Shown here one piece after another: positions 1,439 through 36,386 of a DNA stretch of 64,000 nucleotides. The notes under the pieces were generated by a model. That model was not told where the DNA came from. It ran no database searches and saw only the letters and a list, made by a program, of their open reading frames with translations. This stretch comes from a phage. Position numbers and translations under genes: made by a program. The stretch lies in sequence record PZ862964.1; one strand, 5' to 3'. Within the stretch, counting starts at the first letter, position 1; every line of letters begins with the position of its first letter.

Positions 1439-1491
1439 GTTTACAAGTCCCTCGTGTTGTGTTATAGTAGTCTTACTGACACAACATGAGG
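1439..1491 (+). promoter_or_regulatory. Early promoter stem-loop cassette (PeSL-like) upstream of alc
   Basis: gtttac (1439-1444), 18-nt spacer, tatagt (1463-1468); imperfect inverted repeat cctcgtgttgtg (1450-1461) / cacaacatgagg (1480-1491) flanking the -10. Near-identical copy at 17095-17147. Confidence 0.6.
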
Positions 1492-1499
1492 ACTTTATG

Positions 1500-2867: not shown

Positions 2868-4074
<1,207 letters not shown>

Positions 4075-4075
<1 letters not shown>

Positions 4076-4272
4076 TGGCGTGGCATCATGAAACTTGGTC
4101 TATTGTTATTGTAAATAGTGGTTTAGTTGGTACTAGTAATGGGCAATTTTGTGTATTCACCAGTGAAATCAGAGCTTGGGAGGAATGCCTTAAATTAAGA
4201 GAAAAGAATCCTGATGTTGAACTAACAGTAAAGAAAACTAAACTGCCTTTACCATGGAAAACGTATGAATAA
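4075..4272 (+). CDS. Hypothetical small early protein (cd.x-region ORF)
   Basis: ATG overlapping pseT stop (TAATG); ORF-track ORF 4045-4272 trimmed to this start. Confidence 0.45.
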
Positions 4273-4745: not shown

Positions 4746-4784
4746 GTTTACTTTACGGTAGAGTTGTGATATTATAGCTCTACC
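4746..4784 (+). promoter_or_regulatory. Early promoter stem-loop cassette (PeSL-like)
   Basis: gtttac (4746-4751), ~18-nt spacer, tattat (4770-4775); inverted repeat ggtagag (4757-4763) / ctctacc (4778-4784) flanking -10; RBS gagga then ATG 4806. Confidence 0.55.
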
Positions 4785-4805
4785 AAAACAAATGAGGAAA
4801 TTGAA

Positions 4806-5333
4806 ATGAGCGAATGGTTTGAAGAAGATAAGGTTTATCGCTTTAAAACTGGGTATAAAGATATTTTTAATGAAACTTGCGGGGCTAATAAACGAATTGC
4901 CCAGTTTATTGGGGAAAATTCATTTAAAGTAAAAATAGATCCTGCGAAGAATGTTATTAGCATTAAACGCGAAATTGATGACTGCTGGTATAAAGCTATT
5001 GATGTAATGGGCGAATCCTATAAAGATAGCCCGTTATTTTCAATTGCTTATATGTTAGAATATTCTTTTTTCGAAGAAGTTCAAAAAGATGATTCTGTCA
5101 GTAAATTTGAAATTAAAGCTGATAAAGAAATTAAGTGGAAAGTAGTAGGTATTACTGGTTGTATGTTTTATATCTATGCTCAAACTGATACGAAGGAAGA
5201 AGCTAAAAAGAAAGCTCTAGAATATCTTGAAGAGCATGAAGAAGGTCCGGTAATGATTACTCAAGATGCTGAATTAGTTTCTGTCAAATTAGTTAAAAAT
5301 GTTGAAAGTAAGGAGCTGGGATCAACATGCTAA
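4806..5333 (+). CDS. Hypothetical early protein
   Basis: 175-aa ORF with own promoter and RBS (aaatgaggaaattgaaATG). Confidence 0.6.
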   Translation: MSEWFEEDKVYRFKTGYKDIFNETCGANKRIAQFIGENSFKVKIDPAKNVISIKREIDDCWYKAIDVMGESYKDSPLFSIAYMLEYSFFEEVQKDDSVSKFEIKADKEIKWKVVGITGCMFYIYAQTDTKEEAKKKALEYLEEHEEGPVMITQDAELVSVKLVKNVESKELGSTC

Positions 5334-7789: not shown

Positions 7790-7867
7790 TTATGTTGACG
7801 AGGTTTATGGTTATCCTGTCGGTAAATATTCAAAACCTAAGTACCCCCTTGAGGGCTTGCGCAGGCA

Positions 7868-8086: not shown

Positions 8087-8090
8087 GTTG

Positions 8091-8120
8091 AGGACTCCTT
8101 CGGGAGTCCTTTTTTATTTT
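8091..8120 (+). terminator. Rho-independent terminator
   Basis: Hairpin aggactcc-ttcg-ggagtcct (8091-8110) followed by tttttatttt. Confidence 0.8.
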
Positions 8121-8139: not shown

Positions 8140-8172
8140 GTTTACAGTACGGTTCCTTTGTGATAGTATTAT
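8140..8172 (+). promoter_or_regulatory. Early promoter stem-loop cassette (PeSL-like)
   Basis: gtttac (8140-8145), 17-19-nt spacer, atagta/tagtat -10; inverted repeat tttgtg / cacaaa around -10; RBS aaggag (8185-8190) then ATG 8197. Confidence 0.55.
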
Positions 8173-8196
8173 CTTACACAAACAAAGGAGAATAAA

Positions 8197-8529
8197 ATGA
8201 AAACGATTAATCTGAACTCTACAGTTAAAACTAAATGTTTCAATGGTAAATATAATGAAACTATGTGGTTCTTAATGGCAGTTGAAGGTGATATTATTGA
8301 AGTAGAAACAACAGAAGGTATGGGAACAGATTTCACCTTTACAATTCAAGTTCATAATTTCTTTACTGGTTGGATTTATGAATTGAATACAATAATCGTT
8401 GGAAAAATTGAACAAAATGAATTAGGCGAATGGCATTATGTTACAGCTCGCCAACGTGCCGAACGCTTAATTGAGAAGATGAAAAAAGTTGGTAAACTTG
8501 ACATGCAGCATTGGAAAGTAGTAAAATAA
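8197..8529 (+). CDS. Hypothetical early protein
   Basis: 110-aa ORF with dedicated promoter and strong RBS. Confidence 0.6.
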   Translation: MKTINLNSTVKTKCFNGKYNETMWFLMAVEGDIIEVETTEGMGTDFTFTIQVHNFFTGWIYELNTIIVGKIEQNELGEWHYVTARQRAERLIEKMKKVGKLDMQHWKVVK

Positions 8530-8531
8530 TT

Positions 8532-8571
8532 GTTTACTTTGGTACAAGATATGATATTATATACTTGTACC
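8532..8571 (+). promoter_or_regulatory. Early promoter stem-loop cassette (PeSL-like)
   Basis: gtttac (8532-8537), 17-nt spacer, tattat (8555-8560); inverted repeat ggtacaag (8541-8548) / cttgtacc (8564-8571) flanking -10; RBS ggag then ATG 8597. Confidence 0.6.
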
Positions 8572-8596
8572 GCAATTAAACATCTTGGAGAATAAA

Positions 8597-8962
8597 ATGA
8601 ACTACATTAACTTTGAACGTAAATATGTTTCTAATGGTATTGCAGGTTCTATTGATACCATCTGCCTTTGGAAACATCAAAATGGATCAGTATGCGAAAT
8701 TGAACAATATATGACTCCTAATTACGTTTATATGCGATTTGAAAACGGTATCACGGTTTCAATCACGATGGAAGGTTCCAACTTCAAAATCGCTCTGGAT
8801 GATGATTTCCGTCAACGCGATTTAGGGACTCATCCTTGCTGGAATGGCGTTAATCGCAAGCTTTTGGTTAAAACTTGGATTCGTCATATTCTGAGTAACA
8901 GAGCTAAACCTGAGCATCTTGAAGCAATCTTTGATGTAGTTCTTAATGAATTTGATATTTAA
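8597..8962 (+). CDS. Hypothetical early protein
   Basis: ATG 8597 after RBS ggag; ORF-track start 8585 is a TTG extension. Confidence 0.6.
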   Translation: MNYINFERKYVSNGIAGSIDTICLWKHQNGSVCEIEQYMTPNYVYMRFENGITVSITMEGSNFKIALDDDFRQRDLGTHPCWNGVNRKLLVKTWIRHILSNRAKPEHLEAIFDVVLNEFDI

Positions 8963-10974: not shown

Positions 10975-11243
10975 TGTTTGTTGTTCACACTATTTATGAA
11001 AATGAAGGTAATACTACACGTGATTACGGTCACGTAAATCAATTTTTTAGATGCAATCCAGAATTCCGAGCTCAAAAAGACGAACGAATTTTTAAAAAAT
11101 GTGTAGAGCAAGGTTTCATTTACGTCAAGCATTGGATGCAAGGAAATAAAGTTAGAACCACGTACCATAGGTCTTTGACTGAGCTTAATGATGAATTGAT
11201 TTATAATAGAGCTGTAAACCAAACTCTAAAGGATGAACAATGA
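10974..11243 (+). CDS. Hypothetical small protein
   Basis: 89-aa ORF immediately upstream of DNA ligase, overlapping junctions. Confidence 0.5.
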   Translation: MFVVHTIYENEGNTTRDYGHVNQFFRCNPEFRAQKDERIFKKCVEQGFIYVKHWMQGNKVRTTYHRSLTELNDELIYNRAVNQTLKDEQ

Positions 11244-12703
11244 TTCTTAAAATTCTGAACGAAATAGCATCTATTGGTTCAACTAAGCAGAAGCAAGCAA
11301 TTCTTGAAAAGAATAAAGATAATGAATTGCTCAAACGAGTATATCGTCTGACTTATTCTCGTGGGTTACAGTATTATATAAAGAAATGGCCTAAACCCGG
11401 TATTGCTACCCAGAGTTTTGGGATGCTGACTATTACCGATATGCTCGATTTTATTGAATTCACGTTAGCTACTCGGAAATTAACTGGAAATGCAGCAATT
11501 GAGGAATTAATCGGATATATCACCGATGGTAAAAAAGATGATGTTGAAGTATTACGTCGAGTAATGATGCGAGACCTTGAATGTGGTGCTTCTGTATCTA
11601 TTGCAAACAAAGTTTGGCCAGGTTTAATTCCTGAACAACCTCAAATGCTCGCAAGTTCTTATGATGAAAAAGGCATTAGTAAGAATATCAAATTTCCAGC
11701 CTTTGCCCAGTTAAAAGCTGATGGAGCTCGGTGTTTTGCTGAAGTTAGAGGTGATGAATTAGATGATGTTCGTCTTTTATCACGAGCTGGTAATGAATAT
11801 CTAGGATTAGATCTTCTTAAAGAAGAGTTAATCAAAATGACCGCTGAAGCCCGCCAGATTCATCCAGAAGGTGTGTTAATTGATGGCGAATTGGTATACC
11901 ATGAGCAAGTTAAAAAGGAGCCAGAAGGCCTAGATTTTCTTTTTGATGCTTATCCTGAAATTAGTAAAGCTAAAGAGTTTGCTGAAGTAGCTGAATCACG
12001 TACTACTTCTAATGGAATCGCTAATAAATCTTTAAAGGGAACTATTTCAGAAAAAGAAGCTCAATGCATGAAGTTTCAGGTCTGGGATTATGTTCCGTTG
12101 GTAGAAATATACGGTCTTCCAGCATTTCGTTTAAAATATGATGTACGTTTTTCTAAATTAGAACAAATGACATCAGGATATGATAAAGTAATTTTAATTG
12201 AAAACCAAGTAGTAAATAACCTAGATGAAGCTAAGGTAATTTATAAAAAGTATATTGACCAAGGTCTTGAAGGTATTATTCTCAAAAATATTGATGGATT
12301 ATGGGAAAATGCTCGTTCAAAAAATCTCTATAAATTTAAAGAAGTAATTGATGTTGATTTAAAAATTGTAGGAATTTATCCTCACCGTAAAGACCCTACT
12401 AAAGCAGGTGGATTTATTCTTGAGTCAGAGTGTGGAAAAATTAAGGTAAATGCTGGTTCAGGCTTAAAAGATAAAGCCGGCGTAAAATCACATGAACTTG
12501 ACCGTACTCGCATTATGGAAAACCAAAATTATTATATTGGAAAAATTCTAGAGTGCGAATGCAACGGTTGGTTAAAATCCGATGGCCGCACTGATTACGT
12601 TAAATTATTTCTTCCGATTGCGATTCGTTTACGCGAAGATAAAACTAAAGCTAATACGTTCGAAGATGTATTTGGTGATTTTCATGAGGTAACTGGTTTA
12701 TGA
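11240..12703 (+). CDS. 30: ATP-dependent DNA ligase (gp30)
   Basis: 487 aa; MILKILNEIASIGSTKQKQAILEKNKDNELLKRVYRLTYSRGLQYYIKKWPKPG... matches T4 DNA ligase as recalled, with adenylation-lysine context FAQLKADGARC. Confidence 0.97.
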   Translation: MILKILNEIASIGSTKQKQAILEKNKDNELLKRVYRLTYSRGLQYYIKKWPKPGIATQSFGMLTITDMLDFIEFTLATRKLTGNAAIEELIGYITDGKKDDVEVLRRVMMRDLECGASVSIANKVWPGLIPEQPQMLASSYDEKGISKNIKFPAFAQLKADGARCFAEVRGDELDDVRLLSRAGNEYLGLDLLKEELIKMTAEARQIHPEGVLIDGELVYHEQVKKEPEGLDFLFDAYPEISKAKEFAEVAESRTTSNGIANKSLKGTISEKEAQCMKFQVWDYVPLVEIYGLPAFRLKYDVRFSKLEQMTSGYDKVILIENQVVNNLDEAKVIYKKYIDQGLEGIILKNIDGLWENARSKNLYKFKEVIDVDLKIVGIYPHRKDPTKAGGFILESECGKIKVNAGSGLKDKAGVKSHELDRTRIMENQNYYIGKILECECNGWLKSDGRTDYVKLFLPIAIRLREDKTKANTFEDVFGDFHEVTGL

Positions 12704-12888: not shown

Positions 12889-12910
12889 AGGCCTTCGGGC
12901 CTTTAATTTT
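12888..12910 (+). terminator. Rho-independent terminator
   Basis: aaaggcc-ttcg-ggccttt hairpin followed by aatttt. Confidence 0.7.
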
Positions 12911-12940
12911 ATAAATAGAATAAACACTAGAGAGGATATG

Positions 12941-15034
12941 ATGGAACTCATTACAGAATTATTTGACGAAGATACTACTCTTCCGATTACAAACTTAAAT
13001 CCAAAGAAGAAAATACCACAAATTTTTTCAGTTCATGTTGATGATGCAATTGAACAACCAGGCTTTCGTTTATGTACCTATACGTCTGGAGGTGATACTA
13101 ATCGTGATTTAAAGATGGGCGATAAAATGATGCATATTGTTCCTTTTACATTAACTGCTAAAGGTTCAATTGCTAAATTAAAAGGTCTTGGTCCAAGCCC
13201 AATTAATTATATCAATTCAGTTTTTACTGTTGCAATGCAAACAATGCGTCAGTATAAAATTGATGCTTGTATGCTCCGTATTCTTAAGTCTAAAACTGCT
13301 GGTCAAGCTAGACAAATTCAAGTTATTGCTGATAGACTTATCCGTAGTCGTTCAGGTGGCAGATACGTCCTTCTTAAGGAACTCTGGGATTACGATAAAA
13401 AGTATGCATATATTCTTATACATCGCAAAAATGTATCACTAGAAGACATTCCAGGAGTTCCGGAAATTAGTACCGAGCTCTTTACTAAAGTTGAATCGAA
13501 GGTCGGTGATGTTTATATCAATAAAGATACTGGAGCTCAAGTAACTAAAAATGAGGCAATTGCAGCATCTATTGCACAAGAAAATGATAAACGTTCTGAC
13601 CAAGCTGTAATCGTTAAAGTTAAAATTTCCCGTAGAGCAATTGCGCAAAGTCAATCGTTAGAGTCTTCTAGATTTGAAAGTGAATTATTCCAGAAGTATG
13701 AATCTACAGCAGCTAATTTTAATAAACCTGCTACCGCTCCTTTAATTCCCGAAGCAGAAGAAATGAAGCTTGGAATTAATTCATTAGCTTCTAAAACCAA
13801 GGCAGCAAAAATTATTGCCGAAGGAACTGCAGATGAACTTCATTATGACTATAAATTCTTTTCAAAAAGTGAGGTTAATGAAGTTTCTGAAAAAATTAAA
13901 GATGTAATTCTTAATGCGATTAAAAATGAACCAACTACTTCAATAAAATGTTTAGAGAAATACGCAGCAGCTGTTAATCAACTCTTTGAAGAATATAAAG
14001 ATAATTGGCTTGATAAACATAATAAAACTCGTAAAGGGCAGCCAGATGAAGTCTGGGAAGAAATGACTAAAAATTCCTGGAACGCAGCAAAAACTAAATT
14101 CCTCAAAAGAATGATTTATAGTTTTTCTGGAATTGGTGCAGGTCCAATGATTGATATTACTATTGCCCGTGATGGTTCTAAATATACTCCATCACAAAAG
14201 CGCGGCATTAGAGAGTATTGTGGTTCAGGATATACTGACATCAATAATCTTCTTTTAGGTCGTTACAATCCAGAACGATATGATGTAATGAGTGAAAAAG
14301 AAATTGAATCTGCTATAACTAATTTAGATTCAGCTTTTGAAAATGGTGACCGCATACCGGAAGGCATTACAGTTTATCGTGCTCAAAGTATGACTGCTCC
14401 TATATACGAAGCGCTAGTTAAAAATAAAGTGTTCTACTTCAGAAATTTTGTATCTACTTCTTTAACTCCTATCATTTTTGGACGTTTTGGAATTACACAT
14501 GCTGGTATTGGTCTTTTAGAACCAGAATCTCGCAATGAATTAACAGTTGATAAAAATGAAGAAGGAATAACTATTAATCCAAACGAAATAAGAGCGTATA
14601 AAGAAAATCCTGAATACGTTAAAGTTCAAATAGGATGGGCAATTGATGGAGCTCATAAAGTTAATGTTGTATATCCAGGAAGTCTCGGAATAGCAACAGA
14701 AGCTGAAGTTATTCTACCGCGTGGATTGATGGTCAAAGTTAATAAAATAACTGATGCTTCTAATAATGACGGAACAACATCTAATAATACAAAACTCATT
14801 CAAGCTGAAGTTATGACCACGGAAGAGCTCACCGAATCGGTAATCTATGATGGAGACCATTTAATGGAAACTGGTGAATTGGTTGCAATGACAGGTGATA
14901 TTGAAATAGAAGACAGAGTTGACTTTGCATCATTTGTTTCATCAAATGTTAAACAGAAAGTAGAATCATCTCTTGGAATTATTGCGTCTTGCATAGATAT
15001 TACAAACATGCCTTACAAGTTCGTTCAAGGATAA
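12941..15034 (+). CDS. alt: Alt-type ADP-ribosyltransferase (virion-packaged, injected)
   Basis: ~697 aa; N-terminus MELITELFDEDTTLPITNLNPKKKIPQIF as in T4 Alt (recalled); R-S-E ART motif elements (YRAQ, FVSTSL, EAEVILPRG). Confidence 0.85.
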   Translation: MELITELFDEDTTLPITNLNPKKKIPQIFSVHVDDAIEQPGFRLCTYTSGGDTNRDLKMGDKMMHIVPFTLTAKGSIAKLKGLGPSPINYINSVFTVAMQTMRQYKIDACMLRILKSKTAGQARQIQVIADRLIRSRSGGRYVLLKELWDYDKKYAYILIHRKNVSLEDIPGVPEISTELFTKVESKVGDVYINKDTGAQVTKNEAIAASIAQENDKRSDQAVIVKVKISRRAIAQSQSLESSRFESELFQKYESTAANFNKPATAPLIPEAEEMKLGINSLASKTKAAKIIAEGTADELHYDYKFFSKSEVNEVSEKIKDVILNAIKNEPTTSIKCLEKYAAAVNQLFEEYKDNWLDKHNKTRKGQPDEVWEEMTKNSWNAAKTKFLKRMIYSFSGIGAGPMIDITIARDGSKYTPSQKRGIREYCGSGYTDINNLLLGRYNPERYDVMSEKEIESAITNLDSAFENGDRIPEGITVYRAQSMTAPIYEALVKNKVFYFRNFVSTSLTPIIFGRFGITHAGIGLLEPESRNELTVDKNEEGITINPNEIRAYKENPEYVKVQIGWAIDGAHKVNVVYPGSLGIATEAEVILPRGLMVKVNKITDASNNDGTTSNNTKLIQAEVMTTEELTESVIYDGDHLMETGELVAMTGDIEIEDRVDFASFVSSNVKQKVESSLGIIASCIDITNMPYKFVQG

Positions 15035-15037
15035 ATC

Positions 15038-17095
15038 ATGGAACTTATTACAGAATTATTTGACGGCGCTTCGGCGCCGGTTGTTAACTTAAATCCTAAG
15101 CATAAAATACCTCAAATTTTTGCTATTCAAGCCGGTGAAGAAAGTGTGCTTCCTGGATTTAGATTTTGTACATACACCTCTGGTGGTGATACAAATAAAA
15201 ACGTTAAGCCAGGCGATAAAATGATGCATATCGTAATGATAGGTGTCAACGAGAAATTATCGCTGGTTAAGCTTAGAAACTTGGGTGGAAATCCAATTGG
15301 CGTCATTAATGCTGTTTTTGATACTGCTCTTCAAACAATGAAGCAGTACAAAATTGACGCGTGCTTATTCCGTGTACTAAAGAGTAAAACAAATGGCGCA
15401 GCTCGTCAAATGCAAGTTATTGCTGACCGTTTAGTACGTACTAAAGGAGCAGGTCGATATGTTCTTTTAAAGGAAATCTGGGACTATGATAAAAAGTATG
15501 CATATATTATGGTTTACCGTAAAAATGCCAATTTAGAAGACATTCCAGGTGTACCTCCTATTTCAACTGAGTTATTCACAAAAGTTGAATCAAAGGTTGG
15601 TGATGTTTATGTAGACGTTAAAACAGGTAATGCTGTTCCTAAAGCTGTCGCTGTTGCTGCTTCTATTGCTTTAGAAAATGATAAGCGCACTGATCAAGCT
15701 GTTATTCAGAAAACTAAAATTAGTCGTCGATTAGCAGCACAAGCTCAATATTCTACTGTTGATGCTTCACTTCAGGGCGATAGCTTCGCTGCCAAGAAAT
15801 ATCAAGAGTTTGAATCTAAAGTTCCGGTATATAAAGCAGAAGGACCAATGAACTCTGGCGTTATCCAGATTGGTTCAAACTTCAGCAAAGGAGCTATCGG
15901 TGGTATGAGAAGTGCTTCTCGTTTTAAATCTAATGATTATGAACTAGAAAGTTTCCGAAATCATATTGCATTAGCTCATGCACGTTTACGCGATCCATCT
16001 ATCAAGCTGCAGAGCGATATAACATATCAAGGTTCTCAAGAATATTTAAAGAATAAAGAATTTTTTGATTATAAAACTGATAAAATTTTAAGCGATCTTG
16101 CTGACATTAATATTTCTAATAGCTTTGATGTTATTAAGAAAATTATCAATGATTTAGTTAAAGGTTCTAAAGCTACATCAGATGAAAAGACAGCTATTAT
16201 TCAATTTGTAATGAATGGCATTTATAAATTGATTAATGAATCTGCTGCTCAGGCATATGAATACGCAAGCACCGAAGTAACTCCAAAAGGATTAACTCAA
16301 GCTGAATCTGATGTAATTGAAGATTATTGTGCAGATTCATATGTTGAAATGAACTCGTTCCTTTTGGGTAAACCAGATTCTACCCGTGAAGAATATATGG
16401 AACGAGCTATTAAACATATTGAGACGCTGGATTCTGCATTCGCCAAAGGATCAGTTCTTCCTCCAGGAACTACACTTTACCGTGGACAAGAAGTTACCTT
16501 TAAAACTTTGCGTCATAACATTGAAAATAAAATGTTCTATTTCAAGAACTTCGTATCGACATCACTTAAACCAAATATCTTCGGTGAGCATGGTAAAAAC
16601 TATATGGCTCTAGATGATTCCGGCGCAGTATTTTCTGGCGAAGGAGAAGGTTCCGTTGATGCAGAAGATTTAATGCATATGGGTAGTCATTCTACATATG
16701 CCAATGAAGATGCTGAAACTAGCGTGGGTATGGTAATTAAAGGAGCTGAGCGAATCAAAGTTATCGTTCCAGGTCATTTATCAGGATTTCCATCAGAAGC
16801 TGAAGTTATTCTACCGCGTGGAATTTTACTGAAGATTAATAAAGTAAGTACGTACTTTATGAAAGAAACTGCTTATAACAAGTATCTAATCGAAGGTACA
16901 ATCGTTCCTCCTTCTGAACAATTAGAAGAATCAGTATATGATGGAGACCATCTAATGGAAACTGGTGAAGTTCGTCCAATGGCTGGATTTAATCAATTCC
17001 TTGTAGAAGAATCAAAAGAAGAGGAAAACGAAGTTTCTCAAATCTTAGCTTCTTTGGTTAACATCAACGGAATGTCTAAAAAGTTCAAGATGTAG
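15038..17095 (+). CDS. Alt paralog, second ADP-ribosyltransferase
   Basis: 685 aa; N-terminal ~220 aa and C-terminal ART region clearly paralogous to the upstream alt (MELITELFD..., YKIDAC..., FVSTSLKP, EAEVILPRG, ESVYDGDHLMETGE); central region divergent. Confidence 0.8.
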   Translation: MELITELFDGASAPVVNLNPKHKIPQIFAIQAGEESVLPGFRFCTYTSGGDTNKNVKPGDKMMHIVMIGVNEKLSLVKLRNLGGNPIGVINAVFDTALQTMKQYKIDACLFRVLKSKTNGAARQMQVIADRLVRTKGAGRYVLLKEIWDYDKKYAYIMVYRKNANLEDIPGVPPISTELFTKVESKVGDVYVDVKTGNAVPKAVAVAASIALENDKRTDQAVIQKTKISRRLAAQAQYSTVDASLQGDSFAAKKYQEFESKVPVYKAEGPMNSGVIQIGSNFSKGAIGGMRSASRFKSNDYELESFRNHIALAHARLRDPSIKLQSDITYQGSQEYLKNKEFFDYKTDKILSDLADINISNSFDVIKKIINDLVKGSKATSDEKTAIIQFVMNGIYKLINESAAQAYEYASTEVTPKGLTQAESDVIEDYCADSYVEMNSFLLGKPDSTREEYMERAIKHIETLDSAFAKGSVLPPGTTLYRGQEVTFKTLRHNIENKMFYFKNFVSTSLKPNIFGEHGKNYMALDDSGAVFSGEGEGSVDAEDLMHMGSHSTYANEDAETSVGMVIKGAERIKVIVPGHLSGFPSEAEVILPRGILLKINKVSTYFMKETAYNKYLIEGTIVPPSEQLEESVYDGDHLMETGEVRPMAGFNQFLVEESKEEENEVSQILASLVNINGMSKKFKM

Positions 17096-17147
17096 TTTAC
17101 AAGTTCCTTATGTTGTGTTATAGTAGTCTTACTGACATAACATGAGG
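17095..17147 (+). promoter_or_regulatory. Early promoter stem-loop cassette (PeSL-like), near-identical to 1439-1491
   Basis: gtttac (17095-17100), 18-nt spacer, tatagt (17119-17124); inverted repeat ccttatgttgtg / cataacatgagg; RBS gagga then ATG 17156. Confidence 0.6.
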
Positions 17148-17155
17148 AACACAAA

Positions 17156-17446
17156 ATGAAATCTTCTTTACGCTTTTTAGGTCAAGAACTTGTAGTTGAA
17201 GGCGTTATTCCTGCTGATAATGCTTTTAATGAAGCAGTTTATGATGAATTTATCAAAATTTTTGGAACAGATAAAAAGTTCGGAATTTTTCCTTCTGAAA
17301 ATTTTTCAAAGCCAGAACAGACTGAAAGTATTTTTCAGGGTGTAGTAACAGGTAAATTTGAGTCAGAAGCTCCGGTAAAAATTGAAGTTTATATTGAAGA
17401 CAGTTTAGTTGCTTCAGTTGCTGCTTTCATTTCATTCCGTAAATAA
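17156..17446 (+). CDS. Hypothetical small early protein
   Basis: 96-aa ORF with dedicated promoter/RBS, last + strand gene before the late block. Confidence 0.6.
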   Translation: MKSSLRFLGQELVVEGVIPADNAFNEAVYDEFIKIFGTDKKFGIFPSENFSKPEQTESIFQGVVTGKFESEAPVKIEVYIEDSLVASVAAFISFRK

Positions 17447-17452
17447 AAATAT

Positions 17453-17470
17453 GGGGACCGAAAGGTCCCC
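17453..17470. terminator. Bidirectional terminator hairpin between convergent genes
   Basis: ggggacc-gaaa-ggtcccc; U-rich tract on the - strand side (aaataaaaatat upstream in + orientation). Confidence 0.7.
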
Positions 17471-17474
17471 ATTG

Positions 17475-24855: not shown

Positions 24856-25269
24856 ATGAGATTAGAAGATCTTCAAGAAGAATTGAAGAAAGATGTGTTT
24901 ATAGATTCGACTAAATTGCAGTATGAAGCAGCTAATAATGTGATGTTATATAGTAAATGGCTTAATAAGCATTCAAGTATTAAAAAGGAAATGCTTAGAA
25001 TTGATGCACAGAAAAAAGTTGCTCTTAAAGCTAGATTAGACTACTACTCGGGACGAGGAGATGGTGATGAATTTAGTATGGATCGTTACGAGAAATCAGA
25101 AATGAAAACAGTTCTATCAGCTGATAAGGATGTTTTAAAGGTTGATACCTCGTTACAGTATTGGGGGATTTTATTGGATTTCTGTAGCGGAGCTCTTGAT
25201 GCTATTAAATCACGTGGATTTGCTATTAAGCATATTCAAGACATGCGAGCATTTGAGGCTGGAAAATAA
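24856..25269 (+). CDS. uvsY: Recombination mediator UvsY
   Basis: 137 aa, matching T4 UvsY length; position between 25 and uvsW. Confidence 0.88.
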   Translation: MRLEDLQEELKKDVFIDSTKLQYEAANNVMLYSKWLNKHSSIKKEMLRIDAQKKVALKARLDYYSGRGDGDEFSMDRYEKSEMKTVLSADKDVLKVDTSLQYWGILLDFCSGALDAIKSRGFAIKHIQDMRAFEAGK

Positions 25270-27562: not shown

Positions 27563-28243
27563 ATGATAGATAAAGATTATATTGCAGAGCTGAAGGCTCT
27601 TGATGATAATAAAGAAGCTAAAGCTAAATTAGCTGAATATGCTGAACAGTTTGGTATAAAGGTCAAAAAGAATAAATCTTTTGATAATATCGTTGTTGAT
27701 ATTGAAGAAGCCCTCCAGAAGCTCGCTAGTGAACCTATGCCGGAGACTGATGGGTTATCTATTAAAGACTTAATTGATGCTGCTGATGCTGCAGAGGGGT
27801 TAAAATATGACGATGAAGAAGTCAATCCAGAAGCAGCACTTCTGATTGATTCTCCGGTTAAATCTGACATTAAAATTGAAGTAGTAGAAACGGATAAAAT
27901 TCCTGAAAATACCGATGTTTTGATTGAAGATACTCCTTTTGTTGAAGAAAAATTTGAACAGGCTGTAGCTGAGATTATTGAATCTGAAAAGCCGTCTGTA
28001 TTTACTCTTCCAGAAAACTTTAGTCCGAATCTTCAACTGATTGGAAAAAATCCAGGATTCTGTACTGTTCCTTGGTGGATTTATCAATGGATTGCTGAAA
28101 CTCCGGATTGGAAATCTCATCCAACAAGTTTTGAGCATGCGTCAGCACACCAAACTTTATTTAGCTTAATTTATTACATTAATCGTGATGGATCAGTTTT
28201 AATTCGTGAAACACGCAATTCTTCTTTCGTAACATTAAAATAA
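27563..28243 (+). CDS. inh: Inh, inhibitor of prohead protease
   Basis: 226 aa, matching T4 Inh length; position between uvsW and hoc. Confidence 0.8.
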   Translation: MIDKDYIAELKALDDNKEAKAKLAEYAEQFGIKVKKNKSFDNIVVDIEEALQKLASEPMPETDGLSIKDLIDAADAAEGLKYDDEEVNPEAALLIDSPVKSDIKIEVVETDKIPENTDVLIEDTPFVEEKFEQAVAEIIESEKPSVFTLPENFSPNLQLIGKNPGFCTVPWWIYQWIAETPDWKSHPTSFEHASAHQTLFSLIYYINRDGSVLIRETRNSSFVTLK

Positions 28244-28252
28244 GGATAACTT

Positions 28253-29671
28253 ATGGCTTTTACAGTTGATATAACTCCTAAAACACCGACAGGGGTTATT
28301 GATGAAACTAAGCAGTTTACTGCTACACCCAGTGGTGAAACTGGAGGCGGAACTATTACATATGCTTGGACTGTAGATGATGCTCCACAAGATGGAGCTG
28401 AAGCAACTTTTGATTATGTATTAAAAGGACCTGCTGGACAAAAGACTATTAAAGTAGTTGCAACAAATACAGTTCCAGAAGCTGAAGCTGAAACAGCAGA
28501 AGCTTCTACAACTATCACAGTTCAAAATAAGACACAAACGACTACCTTAGCTGTAACTCCTAATAGCCCTGACACTGGAGTAATCGGAACATCTATTGAA
28601 TTTACTGCCGCTTTAGCTTCGCAGCCATCGGGCGCAAACGCTACTTATCAATGGTATGTAGATGATTCTCCTGTTGGAGAAGCAACTTCTGCTACATTCA
28701 ATTACACTCCTGCCGAAAGCGGGGTAAAAAGAATTAAGTGTGTGGCTCAAGTAACCGCAACAGATTATGATGCACTAAGCGTTACTTCTAATGAAGTGTC
28801 ACTGACTGTTAATAAAAAGACACAGACAACTACTTTGGCAGTAACTCCCGATAGTCCTTCAGCTGGAGTAATTGGAACCCCAGTTCAATTTACTGCTGCC
28901 TTAGCTTCTCAACCAGTTGGAGCGTCTGCTACGTATCAGTGGTATGTAGATGATTCACAGGTTGGTGGAGAAACTAACTCTACATTTAGCTATACTCCAA
29001 CTACAAGTGGAGTAAAAAGAATTAAATGCGTAGCCCAAGTAACCGCGACAGATTATGATGCAAAGGAAGTTACTTCGAATGAAGTATCATTAACGGTTAA
29101 TAAGAAGACAATGAATCCACAGGTTACATTGACTCCTCCTTCTATTAACGTGCAGCAAGATGCTTTGGCTACATTTACTGCTAATGTCACTGATGCTCCA
29201 GAGGAAGCACAAATCGAATACTCATGGAAGAAAGATTCTTCTCCAGTAGAAGGGTCAACTAATGTATACACTGTTGATACATCATCTATTGGAAGTCAAA
29301 CTATTGAAGTTACTGCAACTGTTACTGCTACTGATTATGATAGCAAAACTATCACAGCAGAAGGTCAAGTTCAGGTAACTGATAAAGTTGCTCCAGAACC
29401 AGAAGGTGAATTGCCTTATGTTCATCCTCTTCCACATCGCACTTCAGCTTACATCTGGTGCGGTTGGTGGGTTATGGATGAAATCCAAAAAATGACCGAA
29501 GAAGGTAAAGATTGGAAAACTGACGATCCAGATAGTAAATACTACCTGCATCGTTACACTCTTCAGAAGATGATGAAAGACTATCCAGAAGTTGATGTCC
29601 AAGAATCGCGTAATGGATACATCATTCATAAAACTGCTTTAGAAACTGGTATCATCTATACCTATCCATAA
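28253..29671 (+). CDS. hoc: Hoc, highly immunogenic outer capsid protein, with one extra Ig-like domain
   Basis: 472 aa; MAFTVDITPKTPTGVIDETKQFTATPSG... and C-terminal capsid-binding region (YVHPLPHRTSAYIWCGWWVMDEIQK...) match T4 Hoc as recalled, but T4 Hoc is 376 aa. Confidence 0.88.
   Translation: MAFTVDITPKTPTGVIDETKQFTATPSGETGGGTITYAWTVDDAPQDGAEATFDYVLKGPAGQKTIKVVATNTVPEAEAETAEASTTITVQNKTQTTTLAVTPNSPDTGVIGTSIEFTAALASQPSGANATYQWYVDDSPVGEATSATFNYTPAESGVKRIKCVAQVTATDYDALSVTSNEVSLTVNKKTQTTTLAVTPDSPSAGVIGTPVQFTAALASQPVGASATYQWYVDDSQVGGETNSTFSYTPTTSGVKRIKCVAQVTATDYDAKEVTSNEVSLTVNKKTMNPQVTLTPPSINVQQDALATFTANVTDAPEEAQIEYSWKKDSSPVEGSTNVYTVDTSSIGSQTIEVTATVTATDYDSKTITAEGQVQVTDKVAPEPEGELPYVHPLPHRTSAYIWCGWWVMDEIQKMTEEGKDWKTDDPDSKYYLHRYTLQKMMKDYPEVDVQESRNGYIIHKTALETGIIYTYP
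28526..29098 (+). repeat. Tandem in-frame duplication of an Ig-like domain within hoc (2 x ~95-96 codons)
   Basis: Protein residues 92-186 and 187-282 are ~85% identical (NKTQTTTLAVTP...VKRIKCVAQVTATDYDA..VTSNEVSLTV repeated). Confidence 0.85.
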
Positions 29672-36139: not shown

Positions 36140-36386
36140 TATTCATCATCCTCGTCTTCGTCATCTTCATCAGAGTCTTTGTCTTTTTTGTCGTCTTTAT
36201 CATCACTATCTTCGTCTTCGTCATCATCCTCGTCTTCAGGTTCTTCACCTTCGATTAAGAAATTACGAGCGATAGCGATTTTTTCTTCTTTAATTAAATC
36301 AATCGTTCTTGCAGCCATGGCTTCAGCAAATAATTTACGAGCGGCTACGAGGTCGTTTGATTTAATAGCTTCAATTAAACCTTCCA

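Follow-up and report, generated by a model that had tools for sequence, protein, structure and literature searches.

Why does the early region of a T4-like phage contain two nearly identical promoter-bearing hairpins 15.6 kb apart, one in front of alc and the other in front of alt.-3, and what do these hairpins do? The window analyzed here is the whole stretch of 64,000 nucleotides of phage DNA in sequence record PZ862964.1. Its first 20 kb is ~97% identical to Tequatrovirus genomes (slur07, AndreasVesalius, and others), and by sequence the phage is a Tequatrovirus. The + strand of these 20 kb corresponds to the T4 early region from rnlA to alt.-3. The genes follow in the order rnlA (275–1435, stop at 1433–1435), alc (1497–2003, ATG at 1497), pseT, cd, 31, rIII, 30.9–30.1, gene 30 (DNA ligase, 11240–12703), alt (12938–15034), a full-length alt paralog (15038–17095, TAG at 17093–17095), and alt.-3 (17156–17446, ATG at 17156), all on the + strand. 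A TATAAATA motif that matches late promoters in sequence, and may act as one, is located upstream of alt at 12910–12917 (+ strand). A bidirectional intrinsic terminator detected by the terminator scan at 17451–17472 follows alt.-3 and closes the early unit, after which the late genes 54 and 48 lie on the opposite strand. Rfam gave no family matches in the whole window, and no tRNAs were found in it.

Other repeats are also present in the window. The two full-length alt (ADP-ribosyltransferase) genes, 12938–15034 and 15038–17095, are tandem paralogs that are 68–84% identical in patches with a register of 2094 nt. In T4 the paralog exists as remnants only (alt.-1/alt.-2), with a deletion between the microhomologies CTAAAGAGT and CTAAAAAGT. 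An ORF of 472 aa (28253–29671) occupies the hoc position by synteny and contains tandem 288-nt repeats (28517–28804 and 28805–29092) that are 75% identical, with a weaker third unit starting near 28229 and indicated by a 41-nt match at 28346–28386. Hoc of T4 has 376 aa, and the ORF in the window is about one 96-aa repeat longer. Short GA/TC-rich repeats with a 9-nt register (TCATCATCCTCGTCTTCGTC...) at 36143–36249 are probably an acidic low-complexity coding stretch of the minus strand.

The direct repeat consists of positions 1439–1492 (copy 1, between rnlA and alc) and 17095–17148 (copy 2, between the alt paralog and alt.-3), both on the + strand and both extending from the -35 element to the Shine-Dalgarno sequence (SD). 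The two copies are identical at 50 of 54 nt and differ by c/t, c/t, g/a, and c/t. A degenerate 54-mer that allows for these differences matched twice in the window, at the copies themselves, with 0.00 matches expected from 100 shuffles. The pattern GTTTAC-N15-19-TATAGT likewise matched solely the two copies (0.04 expected by chance). The homology spans GTTTAC to GAGGA exactly, and the flanks are unrelated. In copy 1 the -35 element GTTTAC is at 1439–1444, the TGn at 1460–1462, the -10 element TATAGT at 1463–1468, and the SD GAGGA at 1488–1492. Transcription is predicted to start at A1475, the seventh nucleotide after the -10 element. In copy 2 the -35 element is at 17095–17100, the -10 element at 17119–17124, and the SD GAGGA at 17144–17148; the same -10 spacing predicts a start at A17131. 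The rnlA stop codon lies 3 nt before the GTTTAC of copy 1, and the TAG of the alt paralog overlaps the first G of copy 2. The original prediction of near-identical direct-repeat cassettes before alc and a 96-aa ORF is therefore borne out at 50/54 identity, far beyond chance, and its consensus string is exact at all positions including the four variable ones. The segment bracketed by the pair had been given as rnlA to alt. The pair does bracket a segment; its content, however, is alc through the alt paralog, since rnlA lies upstream of copy 1.

Promoter-early stem-loop (PeSL) units have been described in T4-type phages as consisting of, in order, an upstream stop codon, an AT-rich stretch, a sigma-70-like early promoter, a stem-loop, and an SD with ATG (Arbiol 2010, PMC2839356). 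The stem-loop may sit between the -35 and -10 elements or overlap the -10 (Arbiol 2010, PMC2839356). The early-promoter consensus for PST/T4 phages has been reported as TTTACW-N17-TAYWAT (Comeau 2014, PMC4122927), and T4 early promoters have a UP/-35/TGn/-10 layout with GTTTAC at -36 to -31 (Hinton 2010, PMC2988021; Nolan 2006, PMC1524935). Each copy in the window reads TTTACA-N17-TATAGT with a TGn and agrees with the sigma-70 consensus at 10 of 12 positions; the -10 element of both departs once from TAYWAT, with a G at position 5. They share with T4 early promoters the GTTTAC at -36 to -31, the TGn, a TAnnnT -10 element, and an A at the predicted +1, and the orthologous T4 sites have the same sequences; the one difference, TATAGT versus TATAAT, touches nothing essential. 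In the record of Yersinia phage fPS-65, the orthologs of these two sites and of three further cassettes described below are all annotated as "predicted early promoter," and a note in the T4 record identifies the ortholog of the cassette at 4746 as early promoter Pe133295.

The anatomy also fits the published definition of PeSLs. Both units are intergenic, begin next to an upstream stop codon, and contain an early promoter, a stable stem-loop that overlaps the -10 element (a listed subclass), and a 3' SD with a start codon. Several similar copies occur in the genome, in a region rich in small non-essential ORFs, and there is evidence of exchange between sites. Association with indels and exchange of cassettes between loci were likewise found, but just one of four indels between the window and T4 lies at a cassette. 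The window copies differ from other PeSLs in that they have no T-tract and are thus not canonical terminators, in that the 3' arm of the hairpin is the SD itself, and in that the copies lie 15.6 kb from each other with essential genes between them, so that the mini-circle and deletion outcomes of neighboring PeSLs are not expected to be viable. Overall, both units are very probably T4-type early-promoter cassettes of the PeSL kind, as had been proposed, with promoter activity predicted from the motifs. Given this agreement and the presence of the pair in the reference phage T4, the cassette pair is an already described kind of element.

Similar cassettes had also been noted at 4746, 8140, and 8532, and a motif scan of the whole sequence had been suggested. 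A scan of the 64 kb with [GAT]TT[TG]AC-N16-18-TAnnnT gave 29 matches. Of these, just five have GTTTAC, lie between genes, and lead into an SD and ATG, namely the three cassettes and the pair. With one exception the five cassettes are the five strongest folds, at -12 to -26 kcal/mol versus -1 to -14 for the other 24 matches. The third cassette (4746–4808, + strand, between cd.3 and an ORF of 175 aa) has a hairpin GGTAGAG/CTCTACC that encloses the -10 element and leaves the SD free. In the fourth (8140–8199, + strand, before 30.8), which is preceded by an intrinsic terminator at 8090–8111 found by the terminator scan, the spacer TCCTTTGT pairs with the SD-containing ACAAAGGA. The fifth (8532–8599, + strand, before 30.7) has a hairpin GGTACAAG/CTTGTACC enclosing the -10 element. 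The stem of this 30.7 cassette (8532–8571) shows a compensatory change, CAAG/CTTG in the window versus CAGG/CCTG in fPS-65 (25045–25075) and VR25 (before 12647); selection thus seems to act on hairpins clear of the SD as well.

The inverted repeat that had been placed around the -10 element is present in both copies of the pair, with arms at 1450–1462/1479–1491 in copy 1 and 17103–17118/17135–17150 in copy 2. Both fold into a 22-bp hairpin that was equaled by 0 of 200 shuffles. The hairpin of copy 1 covers 1445–1495 (+ strand) at -26.3 kcal/mol as RNA (z -5.54; antisense strand -21.6), and that of copy 2 covers 17103–17150 (+ strand) at -25.7 kcal/mol (z -6.32; antisense -15.7). In copy 1 the promoter spacer forms the 5' arm, and the -10 element falls in the upper part of the stem. 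The stem is capped by a GUCU loop, and the alc SD is part of the 3' arm. The predicted start sites, A1475 and A17131, are on the 3' side of the apical stem. In copy 2 the T/TA variants pair fully with a site-specific GGAAC, and this restoration of perfect pairing suggests that the hairpin is under selection at its new site.

Comparison with relatives indicates which part of the hairpin is kept. IMG/VR was scanned with a 23-nt core and gave 7 loci, and most of the comparison was made through the GenBank phage collection. At the alc site of seven genera (Tequatro-, Dhaka-, Marfa-, Gelderland-, Karam-, Jiaoda-, and Winklervirus) the SD region has its complement in the spacer. The layout in these genera is GTTTACA, an SD-complementary stretch, TGn with the -10 element, and a 3' arm with the SD. 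The arms themselves differ in sequence, for example CCUCGUUUGUU/AACAAACGAGG in Marfavirus, UCUCCGUUUAGUU/AACUAAACGGAGA in NP4, and AUCCUCAUCAG/CUGAUGAGGAU in VMC05. Ten alc-site sequences were compared by anchoring the arms on the SD, with 2000-shuffle controls. Arm complementarity exceeded the shuffles at p<0.02 in nine of the ten; for AS6, 198 of 2000 shuffles did as well, which is not significant. Changes on both sides of a pair (compensatory) were seen in 10 of 15 pair columns of a structural alignment that was chosen to maximize pairing, a choice for which the shuffle control corrects in part only. MAFFT with RNAalifold on nine alc-type cassettes did not yield a consensus structure, since the distance of the arms from the -35 element varies.

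Hairpins with a free SD also occur among these phages. In Teguna- and Kanagawavirus the alc cassette folds into a hairpin just as good that leaves the SD free. Together with the window cassettes at 4746 and 8532, these cases mean that SD occlusion is not the general reason for the hairpins. At the alt.-3 site of Dhaka-, Mosig-, Gapriver-, Marfa-, and Karamvirus there is a different cassette, with a short spacer hairpin of the CCACAnGGATGTGG type and a free SD. Mosigvirus has the spacer-hairpin type at the alc site as well, 78% identical to its own alt.-3 site versus 57–63% to other alc cassettes. In Gaprivervirus VR25 (3793–4106) an additional ORF of 77 aa, annotated as similar to a host-transcription inhibitor, lies between the rnlA-side cassette and alc, and that cassette has a terminator-like GGGG/CCCC hairpin whose loop holds most of a -35-like GTGTAC. 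Positions 255–285 of the window, upstream of rnlA, resemble a MotA-type middle promoter (TGCTTCC-N13-TACTAT). The spacer hairpin there, CCACATGGAATGTGG, nearly matches those that Dhakavirus IME08 and Marfavirus have in the spacers of their alt.-3 early cassettes, a likeness that suggests promoter sub-modules common to different promoter classes and sites.

The arrangement at alc could work as a translational gate. Host sigma-70 RNA polymerase would begin transcription within the hairpin, near A1475 or A17131, and RNA from the cassette's own promoter would carry the 3' arm only and leave the SD free. Read-through RNA would contain both arms, and the 22-bp hairpin would bury the SD and make it untranslatable. 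Such RNA would come from rnlA transcripts for cassette 1, and for cassette 2 from late alt and alt-paralog transcripts initiated at TATAAATA. As no + strand terminators were found between rnlA and 1439, or between TATAAATA at 12910 and 17095, read-through RNA should exist at both cassettes. In folding predictions the SD was unpaired with a probability of 0.01–0.28 in read-through RNA (0.02 and 0.17 for window copies 1 and 2) versus 0.36–0.77 in own-promoter RNA, in which the SD is thus predicted to be only ~40–75% unpaired. No predicted difference in SD accessibility between read-through and own-promoter RNA was obtained for the other alt.-3 cassette type. Because compensatory changes have kept the arms pairing, read-through RNA should be untranslatable. 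Own-promoter RNA would be without the 5' arm, and alc and alt.-3 would be translated only while their own early promoters fire. On the strength of these comparisons and folding predictions, the balance tips slightly toward SD occlusion on read-through RNA as the selected function of the hairpin.

Translational control by a promoter inside a hairpin has been reported for the T4 genes e, soc, 49, and I-TevI (Uzan and Miller 2010, PMC3014915). As in those genes, the SD of the window cassettes is predicted to be buried in a helix in long read-through transcripts, with the promoter in or beside the DNA of the 5' arm and own transcripts, predicted to be translated, that lack the inhibitory arm. Those genes use late promoters (TATAAATA) to delay translation, whereas the promoter embedded in the window cassettes is of the early type (GTTTAC/TGn/TATAGT) and not a late one. 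By analogy, an embedded early promoter would confine translation to the early period, which is the opposite timing. The same review of T4 post-transcriptional control does not mention alc (Uzan and Miller 2010, PMC3014915).

Several other functions have to be weighed for the hairpin. It might mainly terminate or attenuate transcription and so shield each early gene from transcription entering from upstream, a role that the PeSL authors assign to it and for which the stem-loop of RB49 PeSL211/210 showed terminator-like activity with a lacZ reporter (Arbiol 2010, PMC2839356). The window hairpins are very stable and lie exactly at gene boundaries, as such a role would have it. However, no T-tract follows either stem (CTTTATGATG; ACACAAAATG), and a terminator scan that did find the terminators at 8090–8111 and 17451–17472 flagged none of the five cassettes. 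A reading of the cassette hairpins as intrinsic terminators was rejected on the absent T-tract. In addition, the 3' arm at the alc site covaries with the SD in seven genera, and a terminator does not require pairing with the SD. Insulation as the main role is therefore unlikely compared with SD occlusion.

The inverted repeat might instead act as DNA, either as a cruciform or a site for a structure-specific protein that modulates the promoter, or as a recombination hot spot. A recombination protein that binds the stem-loop has been speculated on (Arbiol 2010, PMC2839356), the mechanism by which early promoters are shut off is not known, and the repeats of copies 1 and 2 do fold as single-stranded DNA, at -14.7 and -12.1 kcal/mol (z -6.1 and -4.4). 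However, both strands must fold for a cruciform to form, and in copy 2 the bottom strand gives a poor fold (-7.7, z -2.0). Within the stem columns there are four G.U pairs and no A.C mismatches. As DNA the imperfections are G.T on the sense strand and would become A.C on the other. The better folding of the sense strand, with imperfections of the G.U kind, points to RNA and not to a DNA cruciform, and the arms differ between cassettes and genera, which makes a sequence-specific binder unlikely. A function as DNA is on this evidence quite improbable. Known RNase III substrates are about two helical turns of dsRNA in size, and the 22-bp hairpin, with about two helical turns of nearly perfect dsRNA, could in principle be a site at which this or another endonuclease separates upstream from downstream messages. 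This has very little in its favor otherwise, as the conserved part of the stem is only 9–13 bp in other genera and RNase III has 0 occurrences in the review of T4 post-transcriptional control (Uzan and Miller 2010, PMC3014915).

With SD occlusion as the favored function, the question remains of how the same unit came to be at two sites. In T4 both copies are present at the same two sites and are identical to each other at 53 of 54 nt. The same cassette pair is present in slur07 and several IMG/VR contigs, and the alc-site query found two places in each of ~500 GenBank Tequatrovirus records. The pair of the window (50/54) is slightly less alike than is usual in Tequatrovirus (53–54/54). At the alt.-3 site the haplotype identical to alc was found exactly in 195 records and the T/TA variant of the window in 29. 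The alc-type unit occurs at alt.-3 only in Tequatrovirus. Interior identity between the two sites is 91–98% in Tequatrovirus, compared with 49–77% to the cassettes of other genera and 53–81% among those. The Tequatrovirus alt.-3 cassette is 70–74% identical to other alc cassettes versus 51–72% to other alt.-3 cassettes; these identities alone do not tell alc kinship from alt.-3 kinship, and the assignment rests on architecture. A G/A variant at position 40 belongs to the alc copy in slur07 and to the alt.-3 copy in T4.

These observations are consistent with a transfer of the alc-type cassette, by copying, to alt.-3 in the lineage of Tequatrovirus. Copying would have taken place by short-patch, non-crossover recombination between blocks common to early cassettes, GTTTACA on the left and AACATGAGGA on the right, and the two sites may still be exchanging variants. 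The restriction of the alc-type unit at alt.-3 to Tequatrovirus, with a different cassette there in five genera, implies patch gene conversion. The direction from alc to alt.-3 is suggested by parsimony over a handful of genera, not by a tree. Alternatively, selection for one optimal promoter and leader sequence could have made the copies converge, given that all T4 early promoters have an extended consensus in common (UP, -35, TGn, and -10) and that unrelated cassettes already align at 49–81%. The identity of the pair, however, spans the non-consensus spacer, the loop, and the initial transcribed bases (50–54/54), and the other three cassettes in the same genome are without those non-consensus bases. 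The same polymorphisms also occur at either site in different phages, and the alt.-3 cassette of other genera is of a different type. Convergence is thus hardly credible, and copying of the cassette between the two sites is likely from the distribution of its variants.

The pair had further been proposed to drive deletion or duplication of the segment between its copies. T4 genetics has shown genes 30 and 31 to be essential, and the T4 headful would not accommodate a duplication of 15.6 kb. Synthetic deletion-junction and duplication-junction queries were compared with ~500 Tequatrovirus records, with at least 80% coverage required. None of the ~500 records covered either junction to that extent, and each query was split into two places everywhere. 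With essential genes 30 and 31 in the interval and the junctions absent, this proposal is not supported for viable phage. The exchange shown by the data is non-crossover, the cassette being copied between sites.

Cassettes had also been expected at breakpoints in gene content. This holds weakly, as one of the four indels between the window and T4 starts at a cassette and the other three do not. The first is a 295-bp ORF at 2875–3169, away from the cassettes; T4 does not have the ORF of 100 aa (2868–3170) that lies here between pseT.1 and pseT, and no promoter cassette adjoins it. The second is an insertion of 519 bp exactly between the SD of the cassette at 4746 and the start of cd.2. It holds the 175-aa ORF (4806–5333), which is absent from T4 and present in slur07, fPS-65, IME08, and VR25. 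The third follows rIII, where the window (7790–7792) is without a segment between rIII and 30.9 that spans 124 bp in the T4 genome and 167 bp in that of slur07. The fourth is a deletion in T4 that removed most of the alt paralog and ends 19 bp upstream of cassette 2. A PeSL-mediated origin of this deletion was rejected, as its junction is a CTAAAnAGT microhomology.

Taken as a whole, the composite explanation, which joins PeSL identity, copying between the sites, and SD occlusion, is reasonably probable. Its most specific form, in which the hairpins at alc (in at least seven genera), alt.-3 (in Tequatrovirus), and 30.8 would be conserved translational gates and not terminators, and in which the alc gate would have been transplanted to alt.-3 as a unit by patch gene conversion, is held tentatively, at a little under even odds. 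What may be new here is modest, namely a conserved SD-occluding design at alc and the apparent copying of that unit to alt.-3. If SD occlusion is true, Alc, the inhibitor of host transcription, would be made only during the first minutes after infection. The comparisons among phages suggest that entire promoter-leader units move to distant sites by copying, with no crossover involved. If the transplant of the gate is true as well, it would be a concrete example of a regulatory cassette that carries both timing and translational control to a new gene.
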